Source of the DNA: an uncultured Bacilli bacterium | GTDB lineage: Bacteria > Bacillota_I > Bacilli_A > RF39 > UBA660 | Length of the DNA: 60,773 nt | NCBI GenBank assembly: GCA_905235045.1 | Contig: CAJOJO010000008.1 | Span: forward strand, 1-60,773 | Direction: 5' to 3' | Shown here: positions 8,811 to 58,528 of the stretch, one piece after another | How the letters are laid out: each line of letters opens with the position of its first letter | Numbering within the stretch: the first letter of the stretch is position 1 | Position numbers and translations under genes: made by a program | The notes under the pieces: model-generated | Databases searched by the model: none | What the model was told of the DNA's origin: nothing | Seen by the model: the letters and a program-made list of their open reading frames with translations, nothing else

Positions 8811-8913
8811 ATTATTTTTTCCTTTCTAGTTTTGTTGAAACTTTTCCTTCTATAAATATCTTACGATATAGAATTTATAAATTCCTGCAAAAAAAAGAAA
8901 CTTTTTTAAGTTT

Positions 8914-9216
8914 CTATTTTCCTTTAAATAAATATTTTAATAAATATACTAAGAACCATACCATACATGCGACAAAGCACCATGATAATAAGTCATAGAA
9001 TAACCCATTAGAATATTTTGCTAATATATCCAATATTGAATCAGGTACATTTTTAATAAGAAAATCAGACAATTCATTTGTACCTATATGATACTTTATA
9101 AATTTAATGATGTGTAAAAATATTTCAACAATTCCTAAAGCATAAATCAAACTTTTTGTATTTCGAAAAAAGATAATTACTAATACTAAAATAACAAATA
9201 ACAAAATTAATTCCAT
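8914..9216 (-). CDS. Small membrane protein, unknown function
   Basis: 100 aa with about 3 hydrophobic segments. Confidence 0.55.
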   Translation of the reverse strand: MELILLFVILVLVIIFFRNTKSLIYALGIVEIFLHIIKFIKYHIGTNELSDFLIKNVPDSILDILAKYSNGLFYDLLSWCFVACMVWFLVYLLKYLFKGK

Positions 9217-9259
9217 ACATCCACCTACTTTATATACTAATTATATCATAAAAAAAGGC

Positions 9260-10453
9260 TTATAAAAAGTCTTTCTTTAAATTAGGATTTTCTAAAGCTT
9301 TAACTAAAGTATCTATTTCTTCTTTAGTATTATAGAATGCTAAACTAATACGTACTGTATTTTTAATATTTAATTCATCTTTTAAAATTTTTGAGCAATG
9401 ATTACCAGCTCTAACACATATTTTATACTTATTTAAGTAATTAGCTAAATCTTCGGCAAATACATCTTTATAGTTTAAAGTAATTATGTTTCCTTTAATA
9501 TTTTGATTATAAATAATTAGATTAGCATTATTTTTTAATTTACTAATTGCATATTCTTTTAATTCATGCTCGTATTTAGTAATATTATCTAATCCTATTT
9601 CATTTAAATATTCAATAACTCTACCTAAACCAATTACCCCAGCAATATTTTGGGTTCCTGCTTCTAATAATTCTGGTAATTCGTCATAAATACGTGTCAT
9701 ATCTGATCCATAGCTACTATTCATCCCACCACCAAATATAATTGGTTTAATATTTTTTAGCAATTCTTCTTTACCATATAAAACACCAACGCCAGTAGGA
9801 CCATACATTTTATGAGCTGAAAAAGCTAAGAAATCAATGTCTAAATCAGTAACATTTATTTTTAAATGTCCCATACTTTGGGCCGCATCTACTAGGACTA
9901 AAATATTATGTTTATGGCATATATCAATTGCTTTCTTTAAATCTCTTGTATCACCAACTACATTAGTAATACTCGCAATACTAAGTACTTTTGTATTTTC
10001 ATTTATTAAGTTTTCTAAACTATTTATGTTTAAAGAATAATCATCGTTTAAATCGATAAATTTGATTTTTAAATCTAAACTATCAGCTAATTCAAACCAA
10101 GGTAATACATTAGATGCATGTTCACTTTTATTAAGTAGTATTTCATCACCTGGTTTTAATACATTTCTAAAGTATCCAAATACTATTTTATTGATGCTGT
10201 CAGTTGTACCGCTTGTAAAAATAATTTCCTCTCTTTTTTTAGCATTTATAAATTCTTTTACTAAATCTCTTGTATGTTCATACTTTTTATTTACTTTTAA
10301 ACTTATATCATATGAACCACGATGTGCATTAGCGGAATAATTGCTGTAATAATCAACAATACTATCAATCATTACTTTTGGCTTTAGAGTTGTTGCCCCA
10401 TTATCAAAATAAATAATATTATTTTTTAACATAGGAAAATCTTCTCGATTCAT
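9260..10453 (-). CDS. sufS: Cysteine desulfurase, SufS type
   Basis: 397 aa class V aminotransferase. The PLP lysine is in SAHKMYGP and the catalytic Cys is in RAGNHCS. Confidence 0.9.
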   Translation of the reverse strand: MNREDFPMLKNNIIYFDNGATTLKPKVMIDSIVDYYSNYSANAHRGSYDISLKVNKKYEHTRDLVKEFINAKKREEIIFTSGTTDSINKIVFGYFRNVLKPGDEILLNKSEHASNVLPWFELADSLDLKIKFIDLNDDYSLNINSLENLINENTKVLSIASITNVVGDTRDLKKAIDICHKHNILVLVDAAQSMGHLKINVTDLDIDFLAFSAHKMYGPTGVGVLYGKEELLKNIKPIIFGGGMNSSYGSDMTRIYDELPELLEAGTQNIAGVIGLGRVIEYLNEIGLDNITKYEHELKEYAISKLKNNANLIIYNQNIKGNIITLNYKDVFAEDLANYLNKYKICVRAGNHCSKILKDELNIKNTVRISLAFYNTKEEIDTLVKALENPNLKKDFL

Positions 10454-10456
10454 AAT

Positions 10457-11245
10457 TCACCTCCAATATTTATTAATTAATTTTTCTAATTTTTGGCTTT
10501 TAAGTCTATCGTATAAAAATTTAGTTTTTAATATGTCTAAAGCTTCATATTCAGTTTTTCCTTTTTTAATTAATGAATTAATTTCTTTATCGCTAAATTT
10601 ACCAACATAAGTTTCATAATTATTTATAGTATCTTCTTCATCAATTAGTAAGTTTGGTTTTATTATACAGTCTTTATCAGTAAGATTAATTATTTTATCA
10701 TTTTGATTAAGTTCACATTTATTTATACCATTATATACTACGCTAGTAACATTAAATATTGTAGTACCATTATCTATATTAAGTCCATTATTAACAATAT
10801 TACTTTTTGTTTTTGGAGCATTATGATAAATATAGGTATCATATTTATGTTTATCAGGAACAATAGTTTTAAACAAATAATCGATAGAAGCGTTTTCACC
10901 ATTCAAAGAAATAATATCTAATTCTCTAACTTCTTTAACATTATAAAATTTAATTACTTTTAGTTTAGAATTTTTATCTAGGTTATATTTATATTGGATT
11001 TTAATTTTCTTTTCTTTTCTAATTTCAACTACTTTTAAACTACAGTTTGAACTAATATTATATTCAATATCCAATTTTGTTTCTTTACTATTTTCATAAA
11101 TTATTTCTAATTCTGTATTACCAATACAATCAATTATGATATTTTTAATGTCAAATAATTCAAATTTATCAGATAAAGATACACTTATTAAATCATCTGT
11201 TTCTAATAATTCAAATTGATTGTTCTTAAAACTTATTCTATTCAT
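10457..11245 (-). CDS. Divergent SufB/SufD-family paralogue
   Basis: 262 aa from the ATG with an AGGAG RBS. It lies immediately upstream of sufS, and its C-terminal helix region resembles the SufB/SufD tails at 24540 and 25560. Confidence 0.55.
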   Translation of the reverse strand: MNRISFKNNQFELLETDDLISVSLSDKFELFDIKNIIIDCIGNTELEIIYENSKETKLDIEYNISSNCSLKVVEIRKEKKIKIQYKYNLDKNSKLKVIKFYNVKEVRELDIISLNGENASIDYLFKTIVPDKHKYDTYIYHNAPKTKSNIVNNGLNIDNGTTIFNVTSVVYNGINKCELNQNDKIINLTDKDCIIKPNLLIDEEDTINNYETYVGKFSDKEINSLIKKGKTEYEALDILKTKFLYDRLKSQKLEKLINKYWR

Positions 11246-11312
11246 CCTACTACTCCTGTCTAGTAAATATTTTACCATATTTTAAATAAAAAAAAAGAAG
11301 TTTTTCTTTTTT

Positions 11313-11750
11313 TTAGTTTATAAGTGTAAAAATAGAGGCAACTATTACTCCAAGTAAGATTCCAACAAATACTTCTAAAGGTTCATGACCTAGTTTTTCT
11401 TTTAAATGATGGAAAGCTTTTTTGGGGTTACCTTTCATCATGGCATCAAATATTTGGTTAATAGCTGCTGCTTGTTTACCACTTTCCCATCTAACGCCTA
11501 ATGCGTCATATGAAGTAATACAAGTAAATATTAAAGCAACGGCAAATATAGGGGTATCAAATCCTTCTTCATAACCGATTAAAGTGGTTAAAGAAACAGA
11601 AAAAACGGTATGAGTGCTTGGCATACCACCAGCGCCATTAAATAGTCTAGCAATGTTTATTTTTTTTGTTTTAATTGTTTCACCTAAAAATTTAATGATT
11701 TGGCATATTACTAAAGCTGTAAAAGGACAAATAATATAAATATACTTCAT
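11313..11750 (-). CDS. Divergent PAP2 family membrane protein (YuiD-like)
   Basis: 145 aa, with a GGMPSTHT motif and multiple TMs. Confidence 0.75.
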   Translation of the reverse strand: MKYIYIICPFTALVICQIIKFLGETIKTKKINIARLFNGAGGMPSTHTVFSVSLTTLIGYEEGFDTPIFAVALIFTCITSYDALGVRWESGKQAAAINQIFDAMMKGNPKKAFHHLKEKLGHEPLEVFVGILLGVIVASIFTLIN

Positions 11751-11753
11751 AAA

Positions 11754-12476
11754 TCACCTCTTAATTTTATTGAGTAGATATTTTGTTCTTAAATAAAGTC
11801 CAGTATATAATTCATAATAACTATCTAAAAAATCATTTATTTCTTTTTCTACTTTTTCACTTACTTCTAATTTATCGATTTTTTCAATGTCTACGTAATA
11901 GAATAAGCGAATTAGTTTTATGGCTTTTTCACTAACGATTATATCATTAGTTAAACAATTACGACATATAAAGCCACCACGACTACCTGATAAAGTTACA
12001 ATATTTGTTTTAGAACCGCATATACTACAACTATCTAAAACTGGTAAAACACCTAAATATTCTAAATATTTAAGTTCTAATATATTGGTTATAACCCGAT
12101 AGTCAAATCCATCATTTATTTTTTTTAAGCTATCTATTAATAGTTTATATACTTCTTTTTTATTATTTTGTTTCATTACTTGAGTTCCTAATTCAAGTAA
12201 ATATGTTGCATAACTTATTTTATTAATATCTTTTTTAATATTAGTAAAGTTATTAATTATGTCAACACCAGTTATTACTGATAATTTATCCTGCTTATCG
12301 ATTATTTGGAAATCAGCATAAGTTAGTTTTGTTGTGCCAGCTCTTAGACTACTTTTTAATGTTTTAGCGCCTTTAGCCATAGCGGAAATAATTCCTGATT
12401 CAGTTAAAATACCAACTATTTTACTAGTTTCACCATAAGATGTTTCACTTACCACAATACCAGTTATTTTTTCCAT
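11754..12476 (-). CDS. recO: DNA repair protein RecO
   Basis: 240 aa with the Zn motif CSICG...CRNC. Its position after era-yqzL matches Bacillus. Confidence 0.85.
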   Translation of the reverse strand: MEKITGIVVSETSYGETSKIVGILTESGIISAMAKGAKTLKSSLRAGTTKLTYADFQIIDKQDKLSVITGVDIINNFTNIKKDINKISYATYLLELGTQVMKQNNKKEVYKLLIDSLKKINDGFDYRVITNILELKYLEYLGVLPVLDSCSICGSKTNIVTLSGSRGGFICRNCLTNDIIVSEKAIKLIRLFYYVDIEKIDKLEVSEKVEKEINDFLDSYYELYTGLYLRTKYLLNKIKR

Positions 12477-12707
12477 TTAAATCACTAATTCAAAACGATA
12501 TTCTTGGGTTTCATCAGGATATTTTTCTTTATCAACTTTGGAATTAAACATATCATAAGGTCTTGTCCATATTAAATGTTTACCATACAAAGCTTCATAA
12601 ACAACTACTTCTTCATTTGTTTCTGAATCAGTAGCGATACATAATACTTTATATAACTCGCCTTTAAAATGTCTATATGTTTTACCGACTAATATTACTC
12701 TTTCCAT
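12477..12707 (-). CDS. DUF1653 domain protein
   Basis: 76 aa. The YRHFKGELYKV...VVYEALYG...WTRPYDMF pattern is present. Confidence 0.7.
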   Translation of the reverse strand: MERVILVGKTYRHFKGELYKVLCIATDSETNEEVVVYEALYGKHLIWTRPYDMFNSKVDKEKYPDETQEYRFELVI

Positions 12708-12789
12708 TTTTTTCTAACTCCTTATACTTAAGATAATACTCAATTTTACCAGTATTTTTAAATAAATCCCATAATAATTTTTTATTCAT
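12682..12789 (-). CDS. yqzL: YqzL-like small protein (not in the ORF track)
   Basis: 35 aa, MNKKLLWDLFKNTGKIEYYLKYKELEKNGKSNISR, with RBS AGGTGA. It lies between era and recO like B. subtilis yqzL, and overlaps the next ORF by 26 nt. Confidence 0.55.
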   Translation of the reverse strand: MNKKLLWDLFKNTGKIEYYLKYKELEKNGKSNISR

Positions 12790-12828
12790 TTTTATCACCT
12801 ATTATATATAGATGATTTTTTAAGTTTT

Positions 12829-13716
12829 TTATTCACTAAAATCGTTAAAACCAAATTCGTGCAAATATTTTTCTTTGTCACGCCAATTTTTAATTGTTTT
12901 AACATAAGTTTCTAGATATACTTTTTTATTTAGTAAAGTTTCTAATTCTTTTCTTGCTTGAATACCAATGTTTTTAATTTTAATTCCTTGTTTTCCAATA
13001 ATAATTTTTTTTAAGTTATCTCTATCTACTATAATAGCGACATTTATATGATAACTATTATTATCTTTTTCAATGTTTTCTACAACGCAAGTTAGAGAAT
13101 GTGGTACTTCTTCTTTTGTTTCATTAAATACTTTTTCTCTTACTATTTCTGCAATTTGGAAAGTTAATGGTTTATTAGTTACCATATTATCATCATAGTA
13201 TTTATATTCATCAGTTAAATATTTTTTTATTGTTTTAATTAGTTCATCTTTATTTTTTCCTTTAATAGCGGAAACAGGAACTATTTCATCAAAGTTATAC
13301 AATTCATTATATTCTTTTATTTTTTCTAATATTTGATCATTACTTATTTTATCTATTTTGTTTAAAACCAAGATAATTGGTTTTTTTGCTTCTTTAATTT
13401 TTTCTAAAACAAATTCGTCTCCTTTACCAAAAGGTTCATTAATATCGGTTAAAAATAAGATAACATCAACATCATTCATACTATAGTATGATTGTTTATT
13501 TAAGTAATCACCTAATTTATGGTTAGGCTTATGTACTCCAGGAGTATCAACAAATATTATTTGTGTATCATCTTCATTATATATTCCTTGAATAATATTA
13601 CGAGTTGTTTGTGGTTTATTTGATGTTATTGCGACTTTTTTACCAATAATACTATTTAATAAAGTACTTTTACCTACATTAGGTCTTCCTACTAATCCAA
13701 CAAAACCCGATCTCAT
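12829..13716 (-). CDS. era: GTPase Era
   Basis: 295 aa with G1 GRPNVGKST, G3 DTPG, G4 NKID and a C-terminal KH domain. Confidence 0.97.
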   Translation of the reverse strand: MRSGFVGLVGRPNVGKSTLLNSIIGKKVAITSNKPQTTRNIIQGIYNEDDTQIIFVDTPGVHKPNHKLGDYLNKQSYYSMNDVDVILFLTDINEPFGKGDEFVLEKIKEAKKPIILVLNKIDKISNDQILEKIKEYNELYNFDEIVPVSAIKGKNKDELIKTIKKYLTDEYKYYDDNMVTNKPLTFQIAEIVREKVFNETKEEVPHSLTCVVENIEKDNNSYHINVAIIVDRDNLKKIIIGKQGIKIKNIGIQARKELETLLNKKVYLETYVKTIKNWRDKEKYLHEFGFNDFSE

Positions 13717-14102
13717 TTTAAATCCTCTTCATTAAAAGGGTATGGACATAATTCACTAACTTTATATTCTTTTTTTTCGCCATTATTATTATAAAAATAT
13801 AGTGAATCATTTTTATCAAAGAATTCTTGAATTACTTGACGACAACCAAAACAACTAGTGCTTATTCTACTACTATCTTTACATAGACAATGTAGTTCTT
13901 TAAAATCACCTTTTTTATATCCTTTACTTATTGCCCTTACAATAGCGCTTCTTTCTGAGCATATTGATGAACCATAGGAAGCATTTTCTACATTTACTCC
14001 TTCTATTTCTGTTCCATCTTTCATAACTAATATAGTAGCTACTCTAAATTTAGAGTATGGACTATAAGAATTATTAGCTAAATTCATTAGTTTTTCAAAC
14101 AT
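13713..14102 (-). CDS. cdd: Cytidine deaminase
   Basis: 129 aa with zinc-ligand motifs CSERSA and CFGCRQ. Confidence 0.93.
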   Translation of the reverse strand: MFEKLMNLANNSYSPYSKFRVATILVMKDGTEIEGVNVENASYGSSICSERSAIVRAISKGYKKGDFKELHCLCKDSSRISTSCFGCRQVIQEFFDKNDSLYFYNNNGEKKEYKVSELCPYPFNEEDLK

Positions 14103-14148
14103 ATTATCACCAATATAATTATACTAAATATTTTAATTTTATACAATG

Positions 14149-14177
14149 TTTACAGATTAATAAATATGTGCTAGAAT
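14149..14177 (+). promoter_or_regulatory. Plus-strand promoter for a candidate antisense small RNA
   Basis: TTTACA(14149..14154), a 17-nt spacer, then TAGAAT(14172..14177) with an upstream TGC extended -10. Confidence 0.45.
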
Positions 14178-14183
14178 GTATAT

Positions 14184-14289
14184 AGATGAGTTATTACTCA
14201 TAAAATAAATTAGGAACACTTAATATTAGTATGTTGGGTGTTGCCTGAATAATTTCAGTTCACCTAACAATTGTTAGGTGATTTTTTTC
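14184..14289 (+). ncRNA. Candidate ~105-nt small RNA convergent with the hydrophobic peptide gene (putative type I antitoxin)
   Basis: It is bounded by the promoter above and a perfect-palindrome terminator with a T7 run. It has no meaningful ORF. It is fully complementary to the 3' extension of the minus-strand transcript. Confidence 0.4.
14260..14288 (+). terminator. Intrinsic terminator (perfect 22-nt palindrome plus T7), efficient only in the plus direction
   Basis: TCACCTAACAATTGTTAGGTGA is followed by TTTTTTT on the plus strand. No U tract follows it on the minus strand. Confidence 0.6.
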
Positions 14290-14373
14290 TTATATGAATA
14301 TTACTAATAGCAATATTACAAGTAAGATTATGATAGAAAGTAGGAAAAAGATTAAAAAATCTTTCTTACTCAT
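14290..14373 (-). CDS. 27-aa hydrophobic peptide (candidate type I toxin; not in the ORF track)
   Basis: MSKKDFLIFFLLSIIILLVILLLVIFI. RBS GGAGGTGG lies 6 nt upstream of the ATG at 14373, and the stop is TAA at 14292..14290. Confidence 0.5.
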   Translation of the reverse strand: MSKKDFLIFFLLSIIILLVILLLVIFI

Positions 14374-14438
14374 AATACCACCTCCAATCATTTTCAGACT
14401 AAAGGCAATCACCCAACTATTTAAATGTTCCTAATATT

Positions 14439-14467
14439 ATTATACTGGTTATATATCTATTAGTCAA
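14439..14467 (-). promoter_or_regulatory. Promoter of the small-peptide transcript
   Basis: The minus strand reads TTGACT(14467..14462), a 17-nt spacer, then TATAAT(14444..14439), directly after the dgkA terminator hairpin. Confidence 0.5.
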
Positions 14468-14493
14468 CATAAAAAGCGAAAATTAATTCGCTT

Positions 14494-14892
14494 TTATTTT
14501 ATACATTCTATTATCTTAGGAACATAAATATTTATTGCGCCAATTAAAGCAGTTATCGATAAAATTAAAGTTGCGCTACTAGCTGCATCTTTAGCTATTT
14601 TAGCTAAAGGATGGGTTTTTAAAGTTTCTAAATCAACTACTGCTTCTATAGCTGTATTAATCATTTCACTAGCCATAACAAGTCCAATAATTAAAATAAC
14701 AAATAACCATTCAGTAGAATTTAAATCTAATAATATACCACTTATACTAGCTACTAAAGCAGCTAATATAATAATTATCATATTATGTTCATAACGAATA
14801 GCATAAATAATTCCATCAATTGCGTGAATAAAACTTTTACCATAACGTTCTACCGCATTTCCTGTATCCTTATTTCGTGATATTTGCTTCAT
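14494..14892 (-). CDS. dgkA: Diacylglycerol/undecaprenol kinase DgkA
   Basis: 132 aa, 3 TM. The position after ybeY matches Bacillus. Confidence 0.9.
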   Translation of the reverse strand: MKQISRNKDTGNAVERYGKSFIHAIDGIIYAIRYEHNMIIIILAALVASISGILLDLNSTEWLFVILIIGLVMASEMINTAIEAVVDLETLKTHPLAKIAKDAASSATLILSITALIGAINIYVPKIIECIK

Positions 14893-15307
14893 TAAGTATT
14901 ACCTCCTGCTTACTAAACATTATCTTTTCATCTTCTTTTTTCATATGATCATATCCTAATAAATGAAGAAAACCATGAACAGCTAGAAAACAAATTTCTC
15001 TTTTAAAACTATGACCATATTCTATAGCTTGTTCTTTAGCTTTATCCAAAGAAATATAAATATCACCTAATATACGATACTCCTCTATTTCTTCTTCATT
15101 ATCTTCTAAAGCAAATGTTATAACATCAGTAGGTCTATCAACATGACGATATTCTCTATTTAATTTATGAATATATTCATTATCAACAATAATAACATTA
15201 AATTCAATATTAGCTAATTTTTCAATTTCAATAGCTTTATTTAAAACAAATTCTATATCTTTGATTTCTTTTATTTCTTCATTTGTTAAATTATTTATTT
15301 CAAACAT
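14870..15307 (-). CDS. ybeY: rRNA maturation endoribonuclease YbeY
   Basis: 145 aa with the zinc motif HGFLHLLGYDH. Confidence 0.95.
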   Translation of the reverse strand: MFEINNLTNEEIKEIKDIEFVLNKAIEIEKLANIEFNVIIVDNEYIHKLNREYRHVDRPTDVITFALEDNEEEIEEYRILGDIYISLDKAKEQAIEYGHSFKREICFLAVHGFLHLLGYDHMKKEDEKIMFSKQEVILNEANITK

Positions 15308-15923
15308 TAAATCCTCCTAAAATATAATAAATATAATGACAAATAATCCCTACTATTATAATAACCACAATATTATAAAATACTTCGTTAGTTAAAAACT
15401 TAGGTAACTTATCTTTGATTTTCATTAAGAAACGATATATAAAATATCCTACAAAAGCTCCTAGTAAATTAAGTAAAATATCATCAACATCAAATACTCG
15501 ACCAATAATTAATTGTGTTGCTTCGATAGTTACTGAAGCGATTAAACTTAGTATAAAAACATATCTTTTCTTATCAATTCTTAAAAAATAAGAAATAAAG
15601 AATCCATAAGGAATAAACATAATCATATTTCCAATAACATTTTTAAAAAACATATCAGAAAATAAATCATATCTCATTATTTCTTTAAAAGGAATAAAAT
15701 TTGATGTTGACCAACTAACATCTTGAAAAGTTACAACATAGAATAAACCAATTATATAAATAATAAATCCTAGTTTAAATATTTCACTATATAAACGAAA
15801 TTTTTCTCTTGTTTTTATTAAATAAGATATTCTAAGAGATACCAAAATAACAGTTATTATAAGAACCATGGGCCATATATTAGCTAAAATATTTTTAATT
15901 GTTATATCAAACATCTTATTCAC
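15300..15923 (-). CDS. VanZ-family membrane protein
   Basis: 207 aa, multi-TM, with a VanZ-like RVFDVDDILLNLLGAFVGY segment. Confidence 0.75.
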   Translation of the reverse strand: MNKMFDITIKNILANIWPMVLIITVILVSLRISYLIKTREKFRLYSEIFKLGFIIYIIGLFYVVTFQDVSWSTSNFIPFKEIMRYDLFSDMFFKNVIGNMIMFIPYGFFISYFLRIDKKRYVFILSLIASVTIEATQLIIGRVFDVDDILLNLLGAFVGYFIYRFLMKIKDKLPKFLTNEVFYNIVVIIIVGIICHYIYYILGGFNV

Positions 15924-17064
15924 CTTCTATATAAACATAATCAGTTATATCTTCATATACTGTAAAAAACATCTCTACTATTATTTTACTATTATTTTCT
16001 TCAACTTTCAATTTTTTTGTGCGAATAATATACTCTTTTTCTTTTAATCTTTTTTTTATTTTGTTTTCCGCACACTCAATTGCTTTATTGGTTGCTTCTT
16101 CATAGGTGAGTTTTTGTTTAATATATTTAACTTTTTTATATGTTTCTTTAGTAATAGAAATCGGTAAAAAAAGATGTTTAAAAATATTTGTTTCACTTTT
16201 TTTAACATTATAATTTTTAATATGGTTTAATTTAAATTTAAAACTATTTATATTAAAAAAATAAATATCTTTTTCATCACTCATTATTTTTTCTTCATAA
16301 TAAATTAATGGATATTCTACTTCTACTTTATACCATACTTCACCATATACTTTACCTATCGCCACTTTATTTTCTTTTAAGTTATCATTTAAGTAAATAC
16401 TACCTGATATAATAACATCACCTTTATGAACATAGTCATTTTTATTTTTTATTATTTCACCATTTTCAGCTTCAATTTTTAATATTGTGGCGTTCTTTTT
16501 GGCAACTATATTTCTTGGTAATAAAGTATCTTTTTCATTATTTATAATTCTTTCTTCAACTCTAACAATATATTTAGTACCAATTCTTTCTATTTCTAAC
16601 CATTCTATTTTATCTTGATATTTCTTTAAAATTTTTTCTTTTACTTTATTAATATATTTATAACTCTTTTTAAGAGCCATTGGTTTAATATCATAATTTA
16701 CTAATTCTTCTCTAAGTAGTTCTCTTATATTTTTATCATTATGAATTATATCTACTTTAAAAATAATATTACTTAAAAATAGAATAAATAAAAAGCTTAT
16801 CATTAGGATTATTAATATATATTTATATTTTTTAAGAATATTTTTAATTTTGTTTATTCCGTATAATTCAACTATTTTAATCTCATATATTGTTTTTAGT
16901 TCATTTATTTTAGCATAATCATTATTATTTATAATAATATTTACTTCATTATATTTTAGATAGTCTATTTTATATAATTCAATATTTAAGGATATTAGTC
17001 TTTTAATAAATCTTTCAATATTTTTACCAGTTATATTTATTTTTATTTTATTCACGGATATCAA
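15916..17064 (-). CDS. yqfD: Sporulation protein YqfD
   Basis: 382 aa with a central TM. It follows yqfC as in Bacillus and Clostridia. Confidence 0.8.
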   Translation of the reverse strand: MISVNKIKINITGKNIERFIKRLISLNIELYKIDYLKYNEVNIIINNNDYAKINELKTIYEIKIVELYGINKIKNILKKYKYILIILMISFLFILFLSNIIFKVDIIHNDKNIRELLREELVNYDIKPMALKKSYKYINKVKEKILKKYQDKIEWLEIERIGTKYIVRVEERIINNEKDTLLPRNIVAKKNATILKIEAENGEIIKNKNDYVHKGDVIISGSIYLNDNLKENKVAIGKVYGEVWYKVEVEYPLIYYEEKIMSDEKDIYFFNINSFKFKLNHIKNYNVKKSETNIFKHLFLPISITKETYKKVKYIKQKLTYEEATNKAIECAENKIKKRLKEKEYIIRTKKLKVEENNSKIIVEMFFTVYEDITDYVYIEGE

Positions 17065-17287
17065 TTCTTTCTATTTTACCTTCAATTAATAATTCATCTT
17101 TTAATAGTTTACTAATCACTAAATTATTACCATTTATCGTAATTATCTTATTTTCGTTATAAACAATTATTTTATTATTATCAAAGTGACCAATATCACT
17201 ATAATTAACAACATTAATCTTATTATTTAGGTAAATTAATTTAAATTCGTTTTCTAATATATAGGTTCTTAATTTATCAAAAGACAT
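17048..17287 (-). CDS. yqfC: Sporulation protein YqfC (YabP/YqfC family)
   Basis: 79 aa, overlapping the yqfD start. Confidence 0.75.
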   Translation of the reverse strand: MSFDKLRTYILENEFKLIYLNNKINVVNYSDIGHFDNNKIIVYNENKIITINGNNLVISKLLKDELLIEGKIERIDIRE

Positions 17288-17346
17288 AGTATCACCTATA
17301 TAATTTTATTTTTTAAATAATAAAAAAAGAACTTTATTAAGTTCTT

Positions 17347-17799
17347 TTATTGGATTATTCCTGATGAGTCTTTAATCATTATTTTATATTCTTCAGTTAT
17401 TTCAGTATATTCGTCTTCACCTAAATCATATGTAAATGTTCCTTTATATGTTCCATCTTCTTTTATTTTAATTTCTTCAGTTTCAAATTTAATAGGTCTT
17501 TTTATTTCATGTTCATTTCTTATTGTTTTACCAAAAAGAATAATCATATATTTCACTTGAACATCTTTAAATTTTTTATCTTCTACTATTGGCTCAATAT
17601 TAAGACTATATGTTAGTTGGTTATTTTTAAATGATTTAATATTAACTGTTGTTTTAATATATCTCATAGCCATAGTACCATTTAGTTCAATAATATGTTT
17701 TTTACTTCCACCAAAGAAGATGATTAATGTACCAGTGATTAATAATACCACAATAATTAGTATTAAAATAAGTACTTTTTTTATATTTAATTTTTTCAT
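17347..17799 (-). CDS. Membrane-anchored hypothetical protein co-transcribed with the 630-aa pilin-like gene
   Basis: 150 aa with an N-terminal TM. RBS AGGAGG lies 9 nt after the upstream stop. Confidence 0.6.
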   Translation of the reverse strand: MKKLNIKKVLILILIIVVLLITGTLIIFFGGSKKHIIELNGTMAMRYIKTTVNIKSFKNNQLTYSLNIEPIVEDKKFKDVQVKYMIILFGKTIRNEHEIKRPIKFETEEIKIKEDGTYKGTFTYDLGEDEYTEITEEYKIMIKDSSGIIQ

Positions 17800-17808
17800 G
17801 CTGACCTC

Positions 17809-19701
17809 CTATTTAATAGATAACACATATTCTTTATCTAAAGTATAATGTTCATATCTCTTATTTAGTTTTACACTTGATGTTGGACTTGAGCCATCAT
17901 ATACAGTATCACTATATCTTACCCCAGTTACATTTAGAGATAATTTTTTATAGAAATCACCTTGATTGTTTTCAACAAGTTTACCAGTAACATATAAATA
18001 ACCACTATTTAATTCAAATATTGCATATAAATCACCAGTTGTATAATCTAGAAAATAATAACCAGGAGCTAATCTAGATGGATCATTTGTTTGATTCATC
18101 CTTCCAGCGAAACTTTTACCATCTGGTAAAGCACTGCTAATATTGAATGTATTAGAAGAATTTTTTTCATTAAATGATAAATCATCATAACCCCATGTTG
18201 ATATTTCTTTATATTGGATGATTGTAGTGATTTTCTTTGACGAAGTATCTAAAGATATTGAAGGCCTTACCCAATACCTTTGACCAGAATGGCTAACATA
18301 ACCATAAAGATATAAATCATCTTTTGGATATTCATATTCCCCAGCAGTAACTTTCACTGATTTAGCAGATACACCACCACTAGCACTTGTAACATAAGAA
18401 TAATAAGTTGATGATTTTAGTTCTTCTTGATTAGCATTAGTATATGTATTCAATACATAACCATCCGTTGTAAGTCCATAAACAGAAGTACTACCAGTCC
18501 CAGTATCATAATTCCATGAGTCACTTAATATGGTACTACTTGATGATATAGAATACGTAACAGCACCTGTTGTTTTATTTATTGACATATATCCTGGTAA
18601 AAGATAGTTTGTAGTTGTATAACCATTAGCACTTGTATTAAAACCTGTAAGCATTGTGTCAAAGTAAGCATAATGATTATTTACATCCTGAAAAGGTAAT
18701 TCATAAAAATTGCAATAATATACTGTAGAAGCACCAGCTGTAGTAGAACTATCACGATACATTACTGGATTAATATCTGTAGTTGTAACTAACTCCCACG
18801 CATTAGTACTTGCATTCCATTTAAATGTTTTAAGATAATAACGATAATCAGTTATTAAATCACTAGCATCATTCAGATAATAATACATAACACCTATCAC
18901 AGTTGGACTAAATCTAAATACAGGAAAAGGACTATTCCAACAGCCACCATTACTATATGTTATCTTTGCTGTATCTGTGCCTACTAAAAAGGTATCATAA
19001 GCATCCGAATTTAATTTTTTTATATCTATATACATAGTAAAATATTCCGCAGTTGCTGTTTTATAATCATATCTAAATTTCACTATATCGTTTGGAATAG
19101 TAACAGTATTTACTTTAAACATTGGTCCTGATGATATTGATTTAATACCAGTTGCTAACTCTTCAAATGATTTATTTTCATTTATTTCGTATCCTCTACT
19201 CTTAATAGCATTTGCTATCTTTTCTTTGCCAGTTATTATTTCTTCATTACAAGCATTTATATCTTCCACACATTTGTTTGTAACACTTATTATTCCATCA
19301 ACAGTAATGCCATCGCATATTCCATCTCCTATGGTAGCTTCTTTTTGATTTAATTCTTTTTTAGCATACCATTTCCCGTTATCAATACAAATTGCTGATT
19401 TATTATCTGTTGTGATTAACACCATACCATGCTCTATTGAACCTTTATAGCTTAATTTCTCATAATCATCTATTTGCTTTCCATTACTAAATTCTAATAA
19501 TCGATTATTTTCTGCATCTTGCATATTTATTTGATAATAATAATTAGCAGCTTCAGCAATCCCTTGCACACTTGCTTTTAAAGCACCTTTTTGAGCTTTT
19601 TCAATCACATCACTTATTAATGGTATTGATATTAATGTAACTATTGCTATCAATACTATTACCGCTAATAATTCAATTAACGTAAATCCTTTTTTCTTCA
19701 T
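17809..19701 (-). CDS. Large type IV pilin-like surface protein (prepilin signal plus ~520-aa Y/T/S-rich domain of unknown fold)
   Basis: 630 aa. MKKKG|FTLIELLAVIVLIAIVTLISIPL is the prepilin signal. No family was recognised for the remainder. Confidence 0.8.
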   Translation of the reverse strand: MKKKGFTLIELLAVIVLIAIVTLISIPLISDVIEKAQKGALKASVQGIAEAANYYYQINMQDAENNRLLEFSNGKQIDDYEKLSYKGSIEHGMVLITTDNKSAICIDNGKWYAKKELNQKEATIGDGICDGITVDGIISVTNKCVEDINACNEEIITGKEKIANAIKSRGYEINENKSFEELATGIKSISSGPMFKVNTVTIPNDIVKFRYDYKTATAEYFTMYIDIKKLNSDAYDTFLVGTDTAKITYSNGGCWNSPFPVFRFSPTVIGVMYYYLNDASDLITDYRYYLKTFKWNASTNAWELVTTTDINPVMYRDSSTTAGASTVYYCNFYELPFQDVNNHYAYFDTMLTGFNTSANGYTTTNYLLPGYMSINKTTGAVTYSISSSSTILSDSWNYDTGTGSTSVYGLTTDGYVLNTYTNANQEELKSSTYYSYVTSASGGVSAKSVKVTAGEYEYPKDDLYLYGYVSHSGQRYWVRPSISLDTSSKKITTIIQYKEISTWGYDDLSFNEKNSSNTFNISSALPDGKSFAGRMNQTNDPSRLAPGYYFLDYTTGDLYAIFELNSGYLYVTGKLVENNQGDFYKKLSLNVTGVRYSDTVYDGSSPTSSVKLNKRYEHYTLDKEYVLSIK

Positions 19702-19724
19702 ATAACTCCTACTTTCTACTTATA

Positions 19725-19754
19725 ATTATACCCCCCCCCGACAGGCCTTGTCAA
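19725..19754 (-). promoter_or_regulatory. Sigma-A-type promoter P2 with a G9 tract in the spacer
   Basis: The minus strand reads TTGACA(19754..19749)-AGGCCTGTC-GGGGGGGGG-TATAAT(19730..19725), an 18-nt spacer, followed by leader TATAAGTAGAAAGTAGGAGTTAT-ATG. Confidence 0.65.
19731..19739 (-). repeat. Homopolymer tract, C9 on the plus strand (G9 on the coding strand)
   Basis: Counted directly in the sequence. Confidence 0.95.
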
Positions 19755-19768
19755 ACAAAAAAAGAAAA

Positions 19769-20308
19769 CTATTCGTTTTCTATAAAATCATCATTTACAT
19801 TTTCATCTATTTCATCCATTACAGTATCGTCTACATCATCTTCAATTAAGTCCCATGGTTCTTCATCATCTTCAATATTTATTTTTACTTTTGTCTCACC
19901 AATTACTTCAATTCCTAATTCTTTTTCAATGTCAAAACTAATATTACCATTATCTTCAATATGAACACCAGTACAATTTGGTTGTTTTAAGGATCTAACA
20001 ATTATATCAGTATCACTAGTTAATTCAACATCATCTTTTATTTTTACATTAAATAAATTATTATAAGTTACCTTTTTATTAACAACTGTTGTTTTAGAAT
20101 CATTATCATATGAATACCAAATATTTACATCATATGATCCTTCAACGCCAATTTTACTACCAGATTTATAACCTTTAAAATTATGATTTATCACCCAACA
20201 ACCTAATACTGTAGTTGGTAATTCATTTGTTTCTATACTATAATTATCTTTAAAATATTTTTTACCTTTACCAACAATCGCTTTTGTTACAATTTCTTTG
20301 AATGCCAC
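19769..20308 (-). CDS. cotE: Outer spore coat morphogenetic protein CotE
   Basis: 179 aa with a GTG start. It appears colinear with my recollection of B. subtilis CotE (EIVTKAIVGKGKK..., WVINH, DVNIWYSY, LKQPNC, VIGETKV) and has an acidic tail. Confidence 0.8.
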   Translation of the reverse strand: MAFKEIVTKAIVGKGKKYFKDNYSIETNELPTTVLGCWVINHNFKGYKSGSKIGVEGSYDVNIWYSYDNDSKTTVVNKKVTYNNLFNVKIKDDVELTSDTDIIVRSLKQPNCTGVHIEDNGNISFDIEKELGIEVIGETKVKINIEDDEEPWDLIEDDVDDTVMDEIDENVNDDFIENE

Positions 20309-20403
20309 TTAAATCACCTCTTACTCTAATGTATTCAATTACTAGTCAAATGTTTACAAAAAAAATGTACTTAAATAGTACATTTTATGATAAATCATTA
20401 TCG

Positions 20404-20697
20404 TTATAAACCCTTATGGTATTCAGTAATTTTTTCTTGTAATAAAGTATTAAGTTTATCATTATAGGAACTCATAACATATAGTTCTTCTAAAATAACT
20501 TTATCACCGACATAATTTTCTTTTACTTTTCTAATTTTCTTTCTTTCTTCTTCTTGAAGTTTAAATACTTCTTCAAATAAAGCTACTTTCTCACTATCAG
20601 GTGCATCATTAAATAGTAATTTTATTTGTTTCATAAATAATTCTCTTTGGTTATAAACTACATTAATCATATCAATTAAATTAACATTTTCACTCAT
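20404..20697 (-). CDS. Hypothetical small protein downstream of the oapA-like gene
   Basis: 97 aa from the ATG with an AGGTGGTGA RBS. Confidence 0.55.
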   Translation of the reverse strand: MSENVNLIDMINVVYNQRELFMKQIKLLFNDAPDSEKVALFEEVFKLQEEERKKIRKVKENYVGDKVILEELYVMSSYNDKLNTLLQEKITEYHKGL

Positions 20698-20744
20698 ACA
20701 TATCACCACCTATATAATAACACAAAAACTAAGAAATATTACTT

Positions 20745-21314
20745 TTAATTTTTTATTTTATAAAAACAGGAAATTACTTTAGCAAATTTATATAAAATAA
20801 TATTACTTTTATTTATAGCAAAACTTTTCCCCAAAGCTTTTCCACCAATAGTTAATGCCGCAATAATAGCCGAAATAACTAAAACCGTAAAAAATGCATC
20901 AAAGTGATAATGAGCGGATATATTAAGGGCAATTATAGAACCAGCGCCACCTGATATAATCCCACATACATCTCCTACTACGTCGTTACAAAAACTTGAT
21001 ACTAATGCCGCATTTTGTTTAAATTTTACAGCTATATCAGCTCCTTTTATTTTTCTTGAATTCATTGAATTAAAAGGAACAATATCAGCGGCTGTTACAG
21101 CAACCCCAATAATATCAAAGATAATACCAATAATAATAAAAATAACTAAAACAATTAAACCAATTATAATATTAACATTAGGAATAACTGATTCTGATAA
21201 CATACTAAATATAAAGGAAAGCATAAAAGCAGTTATCGTTATTTCAATAATCCATTTATAATTTGTAAATGCTGTTTTATCTTTTTCTAGTTGTTTTTTA
21301 AAAACCTTTTTCAT
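20745..21314 (-). CDS. 4-TM membrane protein, OapA-like (OLE-associated protein A candidate)
   Basis: 189 aa with four predicted TMs and a DVVGD (DxxxD) motif in TM3. It lies directly downstream of the large structured RNA. The OapA assignment is from memory of the family, not from a search. Confidence 0.55.
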   Translation of the reverse strand: MKKVFKKQLEKDKTAFTNYKWIIEITITAFMLSFIFSMLSESVIPNVNIIIGLIVLVIFIIIGIIFDIIGVAVTAADIVPFNSMNSRKIKGADIAVKFKQNAALVSSFCNDVVGDVCGIISGGAGSIIALNISAHYHFDAFFTVLVISAIIAALTIGGKALGKSFAINKSNIILYKFAKVISCFYKIKN

Positions 21315-21327
21315 AATTTTCTCCTAT

Positions 21328-21942
21328 AAAAAAAAGAAATAATTTCTTTTATAAATAATAATGGCGATTAATATAGTTAACTTTATGCCTTAGGTCAAGT
21401 AGAATTTCTCTAGTTTTTACTTATCGTTACCAATAAGCGGTTCCCCTTTAAAAAAACCAATATATTGTCACCAAATATATGACTTGATTACCACTTAGTA
21501 CATACTGCAATCCTACACTAACTCCACTCTAGGAATTTTCTTCAACAACTATTACTATTAGTTCTTTTTTGCAAATACAATTTCATATAGCAATAACAGT
21601 AATCATTTGGCCTAAATCATACTATCTGTCTATAATCCCAAGTATTCACGCAAGACAAGCTACGCTACTCATAAGTTGCCCCACGAAGTAGGTTTAATCC
21701 TAAATCGTCACAAGTCCATCAACTTACGTGTATAGGCTTATAACAAGTTCAGGTCTCCACGACAGTTGGGTCAGTATCGTATGCCATTACGGCCGCCCAA
21801 GTTGTCTTTCTTCCAGCACTCACCCTAAACTGGGCGTATAAAGCAAGCACCAGAAGCTTCACAGATGTGCTCTTTAATGGATTTTTAGCCCCATCTTCAT
21901 AGTAATTAAGTTGACTAGAATAATGTGCCATTACTTATTTAT
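21328..21942 (-). ncRNA. Large (~600 nt) structured non-coding RNA, OLE-like
   Basis: An 830-nt gap holds only a spurious 60-aa ORF. It has its own TTGACA-17-TATATT promoter. The core (about 21640..21900) is visibly GC-enriched against AT-rich surroundings. A 13-bp closing helix pairs 21940..21927 (AAAUAAGUAAUGGC) with 21365..21353 (GCCAUUAUUAUUU). Internal hairpins are present, e.g. GACAACTTGGG...CCCAACTGTC. A terminator lies at 21328..21351. Confidence 0.55.
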
Positions 21943-21948
21943 ATGTAA

Positions 21949-21977
21949 AATATATCAAAAAATATGTGTATTGTCAA
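21949..21977 (-). promoter_or_regulatory. Promoter of the large ncRNA
   Basis: The minus strand reads TTGACA(21977..21972)-ATACACATATTTTTTGA-TATATT(21954..21949). Confidence 0.55.
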
Positions 21978-22108
21978 TTATCATAACTTTAATTATTCCT
22001 TATTTTATAAAGCTATTTTTATATTTAATTAATGAAAAACTAAACATATAAGTAATATAGTTTCTAATTTAACTATTTTATAATAAATATTAAATAATAT
22101 TGTAATTC

Positions 22109-22123
22109 CTACCAATTTGGTAG
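22109..22123 (+). promoter_or_regulatory. Candidate Rrf2 operator: a 7-1-7 palindrome abutting the -10 of the suf operon promoter
   Basis: CTACCAA-T-TTGGTAG is immediately followed by TATAAT (22124..22129), with TTGTAA 18 nt upstream. Confidence 0.4.
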
Positions 22124-22145
22124 TATAATTGTTTATGGTGATATT

Positions 22146-22544
22146 ATGCGTATTTCAACAAAAGGACGATATACTTTAGTTATTATGTTAGACTTAGCTA
22201 AGGAATATAAAAACAATTGCTATGTTAGTTTAAAAGAAATAGCTTTAAAGGAAAATATATCGTTAAAATATTTAGAAAAGTTAATGCTCACTTTAAATAA
22301 AAGTGACTATTTAATATCTTTACGAGGTGAACATGGAGGCTATAAATTAAAGTATGAACCTAGTCATTATAAAATTGGGGATATTTTAAAACTTGCCGAA
22401 GGTAATATTGATGTTACTGATTGTGTTTCTAAAGATCATATTTGTCCTAATAAACATAATTGTGATACTTTTCCTTTATGGAAAGAATTAAATGATTTAA
22501 TAAATGATTATTTAGATAGTAAAACACTAGAAGACTATATATAG
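22146..22544 (+). CDS. Rrf2-family transcriptional regulator (IscR/CymR-like)
   Basis: 132 aa with an N-terminal wHTH (MRISTKGRYTL...) and three clustered Cys (CVSKDHICPNKHNC). Confidence 0.85.
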   Translation: MRISTKGRYTLVIMLDLAKEYKNNCYVSLKEIALKENISLKYLEKLMLTLNKSDYLISLRGEHGGYKLKYEPSHYKIGDILKLAEGNIDVTDCVSKDHICPNKHNCDTFPLWKELNDLINDYLDSKTLEDYI

Positions 22545-58504: not shown

Positions 58505-58528
58505 AATAAAAAGAGCTAAAAGCTCTTT
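58505..58528 (-). terminator. Intrinsic terminator after the glycine-rich protein gene
   Basis: The minus strand reads AAGAGCT-TTT-AGCTCTT-TTTATTT. Confidence 0.65.

Follow-up and report, generated by a model that had tools for sequence, protein, structure and literature searches.

The window analysed here is a stretch of 60,773 nt, in which a gap between coding sequences (21315..22145) had been put forward, from the letters alone, as the site of a large structured RNA of ~600 nt resembling OLE RNA. Using cmscan, we found that the minus strand at 21345..21947 matches RF01071 (OLE RNA) with 392.5 bits and an E value of 8e-112, far above the gathering score of 50; the match spans model positions 1-616 of 616 and is not truncated, with a posterior probability near 1 throughout, and the RNA measures 603 nt over the matched span. 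The start codon of a 189-aa protein lies 31 nt beyond the end of this match. We therefore regard the gap as almost certainly a canonical ole-oapA locus, constituted by a full-length OLE RNA and then the OapA gene, whose features are as follows.

21949..21977, minus strand: predicted ole promoter of sigma-A type, with -35 TTGACA (21977..21972), a 17-nt spacer and a TG-extended -10 TATATT (21954..21949)
21927..21940, minus strand: 5' strand of the helix read as P1, with core UAAUGGC (21933..21927) and an A/U extension, pairing with 21365..21353
21899..21913, minus strand: 5' strand of P3 (CAACU) and of P3.1 (AUUACUAU), separated by a 2-nt bulge
21561..21895, minus strand: domain 1, stems P4 to P9, aligned to the Rfam model with no stem lost
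21895..21876, minus strand: P4 hairpin with the A-rich loop CUAAAAAUCC
21857..21810, minus strand: P5/5.1
21806..21761, minus strand: P6/6.1
21753..21699, minus strand: P7, which folds at z = -5.13
21691..21665, minus strand: P8
21657..21561, minus strand: P9, which folds as a hairpin, with a palindromic GGCC loop at about 21611
21546..21558, minus strand: 3' strand of P3.1 (AUAGUAAU) and P3 (AGUUG), pairing with 21899..21913, 13 bp in total
21419..21481, minus strand: candidate OapB-binding region, with P13, the conserved UUUAAAGGGGAACC and P14.1
21481..21458, minus strand: P13 hairpin capped by a GUGA tetraloop, its bulge aligned as in the Rfam model
21438..21419, minus strand: P14.1 hairpin with a GUAA tetraloop
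21353..21365, minus strand: 3' strand of the helix read as P1, GCCAUUA plus an A/U extension
21328..21350, minus strand: A/U-rich hairpin AAAGAAA-UUA-UUUCUUU and a U tract, 5' of the AGGAG ribosome-binding site (RBS)
20745..21325, minus strand: oapA, with the AGGAG RBS at 21325..21321 and a 189-aa coding sequence at 21314..20745
20970..20984, minus strand: codons of D111-V-V-G-D115, the DxxxD motif of the third hydrophobic helix

The original prediction had kept as its fallback a new large structured RNA, either unrelated to OLE or alike just in size and context. Such a reading could draw on a gene neighbourhood unlike that of H. halodurans and on a GC content of 36%, which makes this RNA far more A/U-rich than the typical OLE RNAs of thermophiles; however, the full-model match to RF01071 at the score given above speaks against it, every highly conserved OLE motif is present, and no other Rfam family was found above threshold in the whole 60.8-kb window (cmscan). 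We thus discard the fallback, to which we assign practically no probability, and retain the identification as OLE, against which we saw no evidence. The motifs ACAUUAUUCUAGUCA, CUAAAAAUCC, ACGCCCAGU, GUAAUGGCAUACG, GGAUUAAACCU, AAAGGGGAACC and CUUGACCUAAG are all present and invariant, or nearly so, in 11 relatives, with a mean column identity of 82% across the alignment of 11 related OLE sequences; furthermore, each of 10 related loci found via the protein carries OLE (10/10, 371-415 bits).

The remaining properties ascribed to the gap were likewise recovered. No credible open reading frame (ORF) is found in 21315..22145, the longest being of 60, 46, 40 and 37 aa. The 60-aa ORF (21749..21931, minus strand) was considered as a coding signal and rejected, being not kept in relatives, where it shrinks to 7-41 aa; this ORF inside ole, called by one assembly, is spurious. 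The described GC richness is reflected in 35.7% GC for the OLE RNA vs 26.8% for the window, with a peak 200-nt stretch (21637..21836) at 47.5%, a value surpassed only at 58.8-60.3 kb, a region encoding a 664-aa glycine-rich protein. As for the internal hairpins, the whole RNA folds with a minimum free energy of -158.6 kcal/mol, at z = -3.94 vs shuffles.

The ends of the RNA had been proposed to be joined by a 13-bp helix (21940..21927 with 21365..21353), and 13 pairs with one bulged G are indeed formed there (RNAduplex, -14.7 kcal/mol). All 11 related OLE loci examined have this helix, with its register unchanged; in its 7-bp core, 90.9% of cells are paired among the 11 sequences, and 4 of the 7 pairs change on both sides, the sequence of the A/U extension being not conserved. 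Because of this shared register and these compensatory changes, we read the helix as the OLE stem P1, as judged from sequence comparison; at the same positions the Rfam consensus displays GUGGUG...CACCAC, left unpaired in the Rfam structure line. The mature RNA would likely extend from about 21942 to 21353, closed by P1.

The second long-range helix was labelled P3 because it is located before P4 and after P9 and comprises ~12 bp plus a bulge, as in PMC12265935. In published cryo-EM models, P3 is the proposed membrane-spanning stem; here, P3/P3.1 joins domain 1 (P4-P9) to domain 2 (P1, P2, P10-P15). Cells of P3 and P3.1 are paired in 100% and 98.7% of cases, with compensatory changes at 4 pairs. 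P1 and P3/P3.1 together comprise 18 pairs, with 96% of cells paired; sliding the partner strand by 1-3 columns lowers this share to 19-64%. Changes on both sides are seen at 8 pairs, a number that falls to 0-3 in the slid controls and was reached in 0/500 shuffles. On four of five covariation measures, 0/500 shuffles attained the values of the real alignment, and 49/500 did so when further pair types were counted, figures that derive from 11 fairly close sequences and from a structure obtained from those same sequences. Within that set of 11 related OLE sequences, P1 and P3/P3.1 are maintained by compensatory changes, in agreement with a covariation-supported structure.

Regarding its type, the RNA resembles the full-length OLE of H. 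halodurans and of Clostridium acetobutylicum/botulinum in its length of about 600 nt, in its stem order from P1 to P15, in the highly conserved joining regions and loops, and in having oapA immediately downstream. The host, an uncultured spore-forming gut bacterium, is a member of Bacillota, as is expected for OLE RNA, whose carriers are usually anaerobes or extremophiles; the nearest genome relatives of the window are metagenome assemblies of Bacilli, Firmicutes and Clostridia, several of them from human gut or animal rectum. It differs from full-length OLE in its much lower GC (36%), in an 11-nt insertion in P7 relative to the Rfam model, and in the absence of the 12-nt Rfam hairpin at model positions 424-435, which is missing from the cmscan alignment of the window OLE and for which 10 relatives offer no room at that point of the alignment, read by eye.

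Two shortened types of OLE RNA have been described, variant 1 (TANB77), with P7-P9 shortened and the P13 OapB site often missing, and variant 2 (RF39), which lacks P7 and P8 (Fernando and Breaker, 2024, PMC11332333). Both come from uncultured gut hosts, as does the window, whose host is A/T-rich and has a small-looking genome. In contrast to both variants, the window OLE keeps P7, P8, the long P9 and the P13 GUGA loop; P7, P8 and P9 all align to the model and fold independently. Since P7 and P8 are present, the RNA is of the full-length type and not of variant 1 or 2 (PMC11332333). A related possibility is that the RNA is a remnant of OLE, similar to these truncated variants, which is decaying and no longer functional in a reduced gut genome, and the very A/T-rich (26.8% GC) uncultured host, with its relatives from gut and rectal metagenomes, the missing 424-435 hairpin and several P9 pairs that are non-canonical in the Rfam alignment would be in line with it. 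Nevertheless, the RNA still has P7, P8, the long P9 and its two GNRA loops, P1 and P3 are kept by compensatory changes, and the OLE sequences hold their 82% mean column identity whereas the OapA proteins are just 54-73% identical to that of the window; in addition, oapA itself is intact, its key residues do not vary, and the locus has a strong promoter. Decay is thus highly improbable, and a full-length OLE RNA remains our reading.

The sequences of the loops for dimerisation and OapB binding are present (CUAAAAAUCC, GCCCA, AAUGGCAU, GGCC, GUGA and GUAA). The OapB site has been defined as a bulged P13 hairpin with a GNRA tetraloop, together with a second GNRA loop on P14.1 (PMC7936274), and in the candidate region of the window the P13 and P14.1 tetraloops align to the model loops GugA and GcgA. 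The sequences that flank P5 at the putative k-turn of the OapC site, CUGUGAAG (21864..21857) and GGAAGAAAGAC, are similar to the consensus and are kept in relatives.

The protein encoded downstream was described as a 189-aa OapA-like product with four transmembrane segments and a DVVGD motif, and our analysis bears out this description: hydrophobic segments are found at residues 22-40, 47-65, 112-134 and 138-156, with DVVGD at 111-115, and the four helices, the DxxxD motif, the basic loops, the CNNM-like fold and an OLE gene upstream (11/11) all match the published account of OapA. More than 7,500 homologues were found. D111 and D115 do not vary in 41 homologues (59-83% identity), nor do R87 and K159/K163/K169; DxxxD is the feature that distinguishes OapA from CNNM domains (PMC11332333). 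Lysines and arginines number 7 in the N-terminus, 5 in the loop 76-101 and 5 in the C-terminus, with 0 in the short loops of the opposite side, so that by the positive-inside rule we infer a cytoplasmic location for the K/R-rich parts. An OLE gene lies 5' of the oapA homologue in all 11 of the loci considered.

The AF2 model of the protein has moderate confidence (pLDDT 75, pTM 0.65), with helices at 19-40, 49-75, 102-136 and 140-168, and its best six Foldseek matches were CorB (7M1T/7M1U) and CorC (7CFG/7CFF), with probabilities of 0.95-1.0. By sequence, the protein gave no Pfam or NCBIfam match at 0.01, and none in Pfam even at E <= 10, and four homologues (P0015, P0039, L007 and L012) reach 20-25 bits with PF01595 (CNNM), below its cut-off of 28.4. 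A search of the PDB returned nothing at E <= 10, and therefore no solved OapA is available by sequence. The suggested CNNM link thus rests on close homologues and on a moderate-confidence model. With H. halodurans OapA (BH2780, according to the original prediction), compared by its published description, the window protein shares a length of about 190 aa, four predicted transmembrane helices, DxxxD, basic cytoplasmic loops, a gene directly after ole, and the CNNM-like fold with 7M1U/7M1T among the best structural matches.

MpfA, CorB and CorC possess three transmembrane helices, CBS and CorC_HlyC domains and a conserved proline, lack DxxxD, and are anticorrelated with OLE across genomes (PMC11332333); their membrane-domain fold is similar to that of the window protein, which is a membrane domain only. 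Shared ancestry of OapA and CNNM transporters, with possibly related roles in Mg2+ homeostasis, has been proposed (PMC11332333). The question arises whether the protein is an ordinary Mg2+ transporter fragment of CNNM/MpfA/CorC type that stands beside ole by chance, rather than an RNA-binding OapA, as the predicted match to CorB/CorC membrane domains and the subthreshold PF01595 matches of close homologues could be taken to mean. This is very hard to reconcile with a protein that, at 189 aa, is too short to hold cytosolic domains, is devoid of CBS and CorC_HlyC domains and of any further Pfam match, has four hydrophobic helices vs three for CorB and displays the DxxxD that is absent from CNNM domains (PMC11332333), and whose homologues have an OLE gene upstream in 11/11 loci; we consider it extremely unlikely and assign the protein to OapA.

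Concerning transcription, the predicted promoter TTGACA-17-TATATT was recovered in our promoter scan as the best site in 20300..22300, with 11/12 positions plus a TG before the -10. A -35-like hexamer and a -10-like element occur at an equal distance from P1 in 10/10 loci examined; the -35 is TTGACA in 7/10 and the -10 is TG-extended in 9/10, that of L014 being a plain TATAAA when read by eye. From this arrangement we infer a start of ole transcription at about 21943..21940, and ole would be transcribed from its own promoter. In H. halodurans, by contrast, ole forms part of a long polycistronic transcript (PMC12265935).

An A/U-rich terminator had also been placed immediately before the RBS of oapA. 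The hairpin is there, followed by a U tract of eight residues (U8), but it is weak (-5.5 kcal/mol, z = -0.71), 35/200 shuffles fold as well, and a terminator scan of the region did not call it (21350..21328). By eye, a hairpin with a U tract is also seen at the junction in L007, L012, L014 and L016, and because of this recurrence in some relatives we keep the reading of a possible leaky element, which might terminate or attenuate transcripts between ole and oapA. In L009, L010, L011 and L013 the oapA RBS comes directly after P1. Part of the transcripts would then read through the weak hairpin into oapA, so that RNA would be made in excess of protein; a second possibility is that processing generates the 3' end of the RNA.

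A different arrangement would have oapA transcribed mainly from a separate promoter-like site within ole, at its 3' end (TTGACC-17-TATATT, 21398..21370), which scores 10/12 in the promoter scan and is located about 55 nt 5' of the oapA start codon. Its -35, however, belongs to the OLE motif CUUGACCUAAG, almost invariant in 11 sequences (one U-to-C in L012), its -10 degenerates in relatives (CATGTT in L009, TACACC in L010), and promoter-like sites in the region number 20 vs 15 +/- 4.4 expected by chance. Furthermore, oapA begins about 20 nt past P1 in L009-L011 and L013, and therefore co-transcription is implied for these loci. An internal origin of oapA transcripts is accordingly unlikely, and the site is probably fortuitous.

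The locus was noted to lie between cotE and the suf operon, in a context described as unusual. The position itself holds, the neighbours being cotE (PF10628, E 4.7e-51) and Rrf2-sufCBD, and it does differ from H. halodurans (ispA-dxs in B. halodurans, according to the original prediction); the context is nevertheless unexceptional, as cotE recurs near oapA in relatives, being one to three genes downstream in L007/L008 and L016. Sporulation genes are among the commonest ole neighbours (PMC11332333, PMC12265935), and we found no literature naming OLE RNA together with cotE. The sporulation genes of the window are cotE, spoIID, yabP, yqfD, spoVA and spoVS. In tblastn searches of the related loci, orf101, Rrf2 and SufB of the window gave no match and SufC gave one distant ABC-ATPase match, in L012 only; for lack of such matches, we consider that conservation extends neither to the upstream context nor to the small ORF behind oapA. 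Genes for OapB, OapC or bS21 were not found in the annotated parts of the window, which leave out its high-coordinate end, and their absence says little because these three genes mostly lie away from ole. For the complete genome, the published phylogenetic profile would lead one to expect oapB (ybzG, KOW motif) and oapC (ybxF, L7Ae family), but no mpfA.

More broadly, the surroundings of ole repeatedly include spore-coat and ribosome-related genes, with cotE, yabP-yqfD and ybeY-era in the window. In relative L015, rpsU-yqeY stands directly upstream, a linkage in agreement with the binding of OLE RNA by bS21 and YqeY, for which published or preliminary results exist. A membrane-anchored protein of 484-514 aa with no Pfam match is found beside oapA in L007, L015 and L016; in L007/L008, the nearest genome relatives, a 484-aa gene stands between ole and oapA, and no homologue of this large oapA-adjacent protein was found in the window.

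By analogy with the particles of H. halodurans and Clostridium described in publications, two OLE RNAs would dimerise through the loops of P4, P5.1/P6.1 and P9. An OapA dimer would bind the RNA and anchor it in the cell membrane, as published elsewhere, and OapB (P13 GNRA loop), OapC (k-turn next to P5) and bS21 would join the particle, which would help the cell to withstand cold, short-chain alcohols, excess Mg2+ and poor carbon sources. For the clade studied here, a joint reading may be entertained, although we hold it as rather doubtful: ole would be an autonomous, strongly promoted gene with an adjustable coupling to oapA, the particle would have a sporulation or ribosome role, and a new OLE-associated protein would exist. 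As to its parts, ole and oapA may be fused directly, separated by a weak hairpin or parted by a whole inserted gene, the neighbourhood pattern could reflect a role of the OLE particle in sporulation or in ribosome hibernation or maturation in non-extremophile gut anaerobes, and the 484-514-aa protein of L007, L015 and L016 might be an OLE-associated protein that has so far escaped notice.

With its large size, its possible passage through the membrane and its link to stress tolerance, OLE RNA counts among the most intriguing bacterial RNAs of obscure biochemistry. A published GTDB-wide survey lists about 2,800 OLE genes for Bacillota, some of them from uncultured gut lineages. The window locus is a further example of this known system, with nothing new as a system, and a standard member recognised by the public Rfam model; the value of the result therefore lies mostly in annotation, since an 830-nt "empty" gap is explained and the adjoining hypothetical protein can be named OapA. 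Two minor additions to the current knowledge are the apparent own promoter of ole, predicted to start transcription exactly at P1 in this clade, and the finding of the ole-oapA pair repeatedly near cotE and once near rpsU-yqeY.

The minus strand at 21345..21947 matches the OLE RNA family (Rfam RF01071) along the complete model (positions 1-616 of 616, not truncated), with 392.5 bits and an E value of 8e-112 against a gathering score of 50, which bears out the original prediction of an OLE RNA. The whole window was scanned with all 4,227 Rfam families at their gathering thresholds, and no family besides RF01071 exceeded its threshold anywhere in it; this extends to ROOL, GOLLD, HEARO and raiA, which we take to be contained in Rfam. 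The predicted fold of the whole RNA has an energy of -158.6 kcal/mol (z = -3.94 relative to shuffles), and stem P7 by itself reaches z = -5.13. Ten related OLE loci, gathered through their downstream protein and all scoring 371-415 bits for OLE, were aligned with the RNA of the window. All stems of the model are visible in the RF01071 alignment of the window, except for one 12-nt hairpin (model positions 424-435) deleted at 21533-21520; in the alignment, the ten relatives have no space for it at that position either, and its loss looks like a clade-level feature. Further, the stem at model positions 198-252 carries an 11-nt insertion in its loop. Stem names were assigned from the text of two reports (PMC12265935; PMC9723947), taking as landmarks the A-rich loop of P4, the kissing loops of P5.1/P6.1, the symmetrical loop of P9 and the k-turn beside P5.

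Stems of the OLE RNA in the window, mapped from published stem names
21895..21876, minus strand: P4
21857..21810, minus strand: P5/5.1
21806..21761, minus strand: P6/6.1
21753..21699, minus strand: P7
21691..21665, minus strand: P8
21657..21561, minus strand: P9, with GGCC loop
21481..21458, minus strand: P13, with GUGA GNRA tetraloop
21438..21419, minus strand: P14.1, with GUAA GNRA tetraloop

With P7 and P8 in place and neither GNRA tetraloop lost, the RNA is, judged by its sequence, of the "full-length" type and not one of the reduced forms, variants 1 and 2, reported from the gut lineages TANB77 and RF39 (PMC11332333).

The 13-bp helix proposed to join both ends of the RNA (21940..21927 with 21365..21353) was confirmed, with one bulged G, and we identify it with OLE stem P1. 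The Rfam structure line leaves both termini unpaired, and its consensus carries GUGGUG and CACCAC close to the 5' and 3' ends, respectively. The P1 core, UAAUGGC/GCCAUUA, lies in identical register in 11/11 aligned RNAs and covaries among the relatives, with compensatory changes to GGU/ACC in L013, GAUGGC/GCCAUC in L011 and UUGGC/GCCAA in L012; the A/U extension that gives the P1 of the window its 13 bp is not conserved in sequence, and several relatives extend P1 too. A second long-range helix, 21913..21899 with 21558..21546 (5 bp, a 2-nt bulge and 8 bp), also covaries and fits the published description of P3/P3.1, the proposed membrane-spanning stem of about 12 bp with a small bulge between P4 and P9. 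Among these eleven fairly close sequences, from which the structure itself was derived, the 18 pairs of P1 and P3/P3.1 were paired in 96% of cells, compared with 19-64% when the partner strand was slid by 1-3 columns, changes on both sides occurred in 8 of the 18 pairs versus 0-3 in the slid controls, and 0/500 shuffles equalled the observed value on four of five measures.

The alternative of a protein-coding region was assessed by reading the minus strand of 20500..22400 and listing ORFs. Between the 189-aa ORF (20745..21314, minus strand) and the Rrf2-family gene (22146..22544, plus strand) no ORF exceeds 60 aa, as anticipated from the sequence. The 60-aa ORF (21749..21931, minus strand) lies within the OLE RNA and is annotated as a gene in one public assembly (L004:1925-2107); in the relatives it is broken after 7-41 codons or has lost its start codon, no longer ORF within the RNA is common to them, and they show no conserved protein-coding signal, so we regard the 60-aa ORF as a spurious gene call. 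The GC content is 26.8% in the window, 35.7% in the OLE RNA region and 47.5% in its richest 200 nt (21637..21836), a peak surpassed solely at 58.8-60.3 kb, in the coding region of a 664-aa glycine-rich protein, in agreement with the earlier description of the gap as the most GC-rich non-glycine sequence. This glycine-rich protein (58528-60522, minus strand) consists of two tandem repeats of about 330 aa.

The 189-aa product has no Pfam or NCBIfam match. More than 7,500 homologues were found in the protein collection, a subset with a precomputed PF01595 (CNNM) annotation; close homologues re-scanned with this profile scored 20-25 bits, under the 28.4 cut-off, the same behaviour as published OapA, which is the next-best cluster after MpfA with the PF01595 HMM (PMC11332333). 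The expected four-transmembrane DxxxD protein was recovered: hydropathy gives four segments (22-40, 47-65, 112-134 and 138-156), D111-VVG-D115 is invariant among 41 homologues, and the N-terminus, the 76-101 loop and the C-terminus are K/R-rich. DxxxD is a distinctive OapA feature absent from CNNM domains (PMC11332333). By these sequence features the 189-aa protein fits OapA as published.

Regarding transcription, the predicted TTGACA-17-TATATT promoter (21977..21949, minus strand) is the best-scoring site of the region (11 of 12), and TG precedes its -10. In 10/10 loci the 5' strand of P1 has a -35-like hexamer and a -10-like element shortly before it (-35 TTGACA in 7, TG-extended -10 in 9), from which ole in this clade seems to have a promoter of its own and to begin at P1, in contrast to H. 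halodurans, where it belongs to a long polycistronic transcript (PMC12265935). A further promoter-like site, at 21398..21370 within the 3' end of ole, is probably fortuitous, because the conserved CUUGACC motif makes up its -35 and the relatives have lost its -10. The A/U-rich terminator held only in part: a hairpin and U tract exist at 21350..21328 but are weak (-5.5 kcal/mol, z = -0.71) and were not called by the terminator scan. A hairpin and U tract lie between P1 and oapA in the window, L007, L012, L014 and L016, while in L009, L010, L011 and L013 the ribosome-binding site and start codon of oapA fall within about 20 nt after P1, a distance that implies co-transcription; in the window, read-through of this presumably leaky hairpin would carry transcription from ole into oapA.

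L007/L008 hold an entire 484-aa gene between ole and oapA. This gene belongs to a Pfam-less family of 484-514 aa that adjoins oapA at L007:4407-5861, L015:6673-8205 and L016:6685-8229, with mutual identity of 35-42% and, in the L007 member, a hydrophobic N-terminal stretch; the family has no homologue in the window and could represent a partner of the OLE locus that is specific to some lineages.

Several metagenome contigs, from ENA assemblies and from Logan sequencing runs, carry the gene for the 189-aa protein (longest, 60,929 bp), and the nearest genomes are uncultured Bacilli from Hadza gut metagenomes (OapA identity 68-69%). In its annotated part, the window is an unremarkable piece of a spore former's chromosome, with pnp, rpsO, rplS, trmD, rimM, sufS, recO, era, cdd, dgkA, ybeY, yqfD, yabP and cotE on one side and, onward from cotE, oapA, ole, Rrf2-sufCBD, spoIID, polC, spoVS, spoVA and a sigma factor. 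Genes for OapB, OapC and bS21 were not found in this annotated part, whose size makes the result uninformative. The upstream neighbours of ole vary among relatives (transketolase, rpsU-yqeY, rnfCD) and are the divergent Rrf2-suf genes in the window. The context, originally called unusual, does differ from that of H. halodurans yet is within the known range: in L007/L008 and L016, too, cotE follows oapA at a distance of one to three genes, and ole clusters with metal homeostasis, translation, sporulation and cell-wall synthesis genes, two sporulation genes being among its 16 commonest neighbours (PMC12265935; PMC11332333).

After oapA, at about 8000-20300 (minus strand), the gene order is cotE, a pilin-like gene, orf150, yabP, yqfD, VanZ, ybeY, dgkA, cdd, era, yqzL, DUF1653 and recO. 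This block resembles what we take to be the B. subtilis order yqfC-yqfD...ybeY-dgkA-cdd-era-recO, presumably following rpsU-yqeY there, so ole-oapA occupies the place expected for rpsU-yqeY. In L015 (OapA 66% identical), rpsU (bS21) and yqeY stand directly upstream of ole-oapA (L015:4619-6594), a genomic linkage matching physical interaction, as the partners of OLE RNA include bS21 (published) and YqeY (preliminary; PMC12054373).

Other nearby elements were recorded. A small ORF (20404-20709, minus strand; 97-101 aa, charged-residue-rich, without Pfam or NCBIfam match) begins 35-47 nt after the oapA stop, before cotE, and is found on same-organism contigs only, relatives carrying other genes there. 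The perfect 15-bp palindrome CTACCAATTTGGTAG (22109-22123), labelled merely 'terminator-like' by the scan, overlaps a -10-like TATAAT just upstream of the Rrf2-family gene and is probably the operator through which the regulator acts on its own operon, Rrf2-sufCBD. Proteins with a prepilin-type N-terminal methylation motif (GFTLIELL) are encoded at 17809-19701 and 57436-58461 (both minus strand), and also at about 46262-46360 and 7330-7488; their bodies, of unknown family, are unusually large (630 aa and 341 aa), with one gene immediately following cotE and another adjoining the glycine-rich protein gene.

The published model draws on genetic and biochemical work in H. halodurans and on Clostridium OLE cryo-EM. 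In it, loops P4, P5.1/P6.1 and P9 hold a pair of OLE RNAs together as a dimer, which is bound at the membrane by an OapA dimer, and P3 is suggested to span the bilayer; OapB sits on the P13 GNRA loop, OapC on the P5 k-turn, and bS21 joins; and the particle helps cells to grow when stressed by cold, alcohol, Mg2+ or the carbon source (PMC12265935, PMC7936274, PMC9723947, PMC12054373). The determinants of these contacts, known here from sequence, are present at the locus, with a candidate k-turn at P5 whose flanking sequences resemble the consensus; the locus is a canonical form of an already known kind of system and, by homology, would work in the same way.
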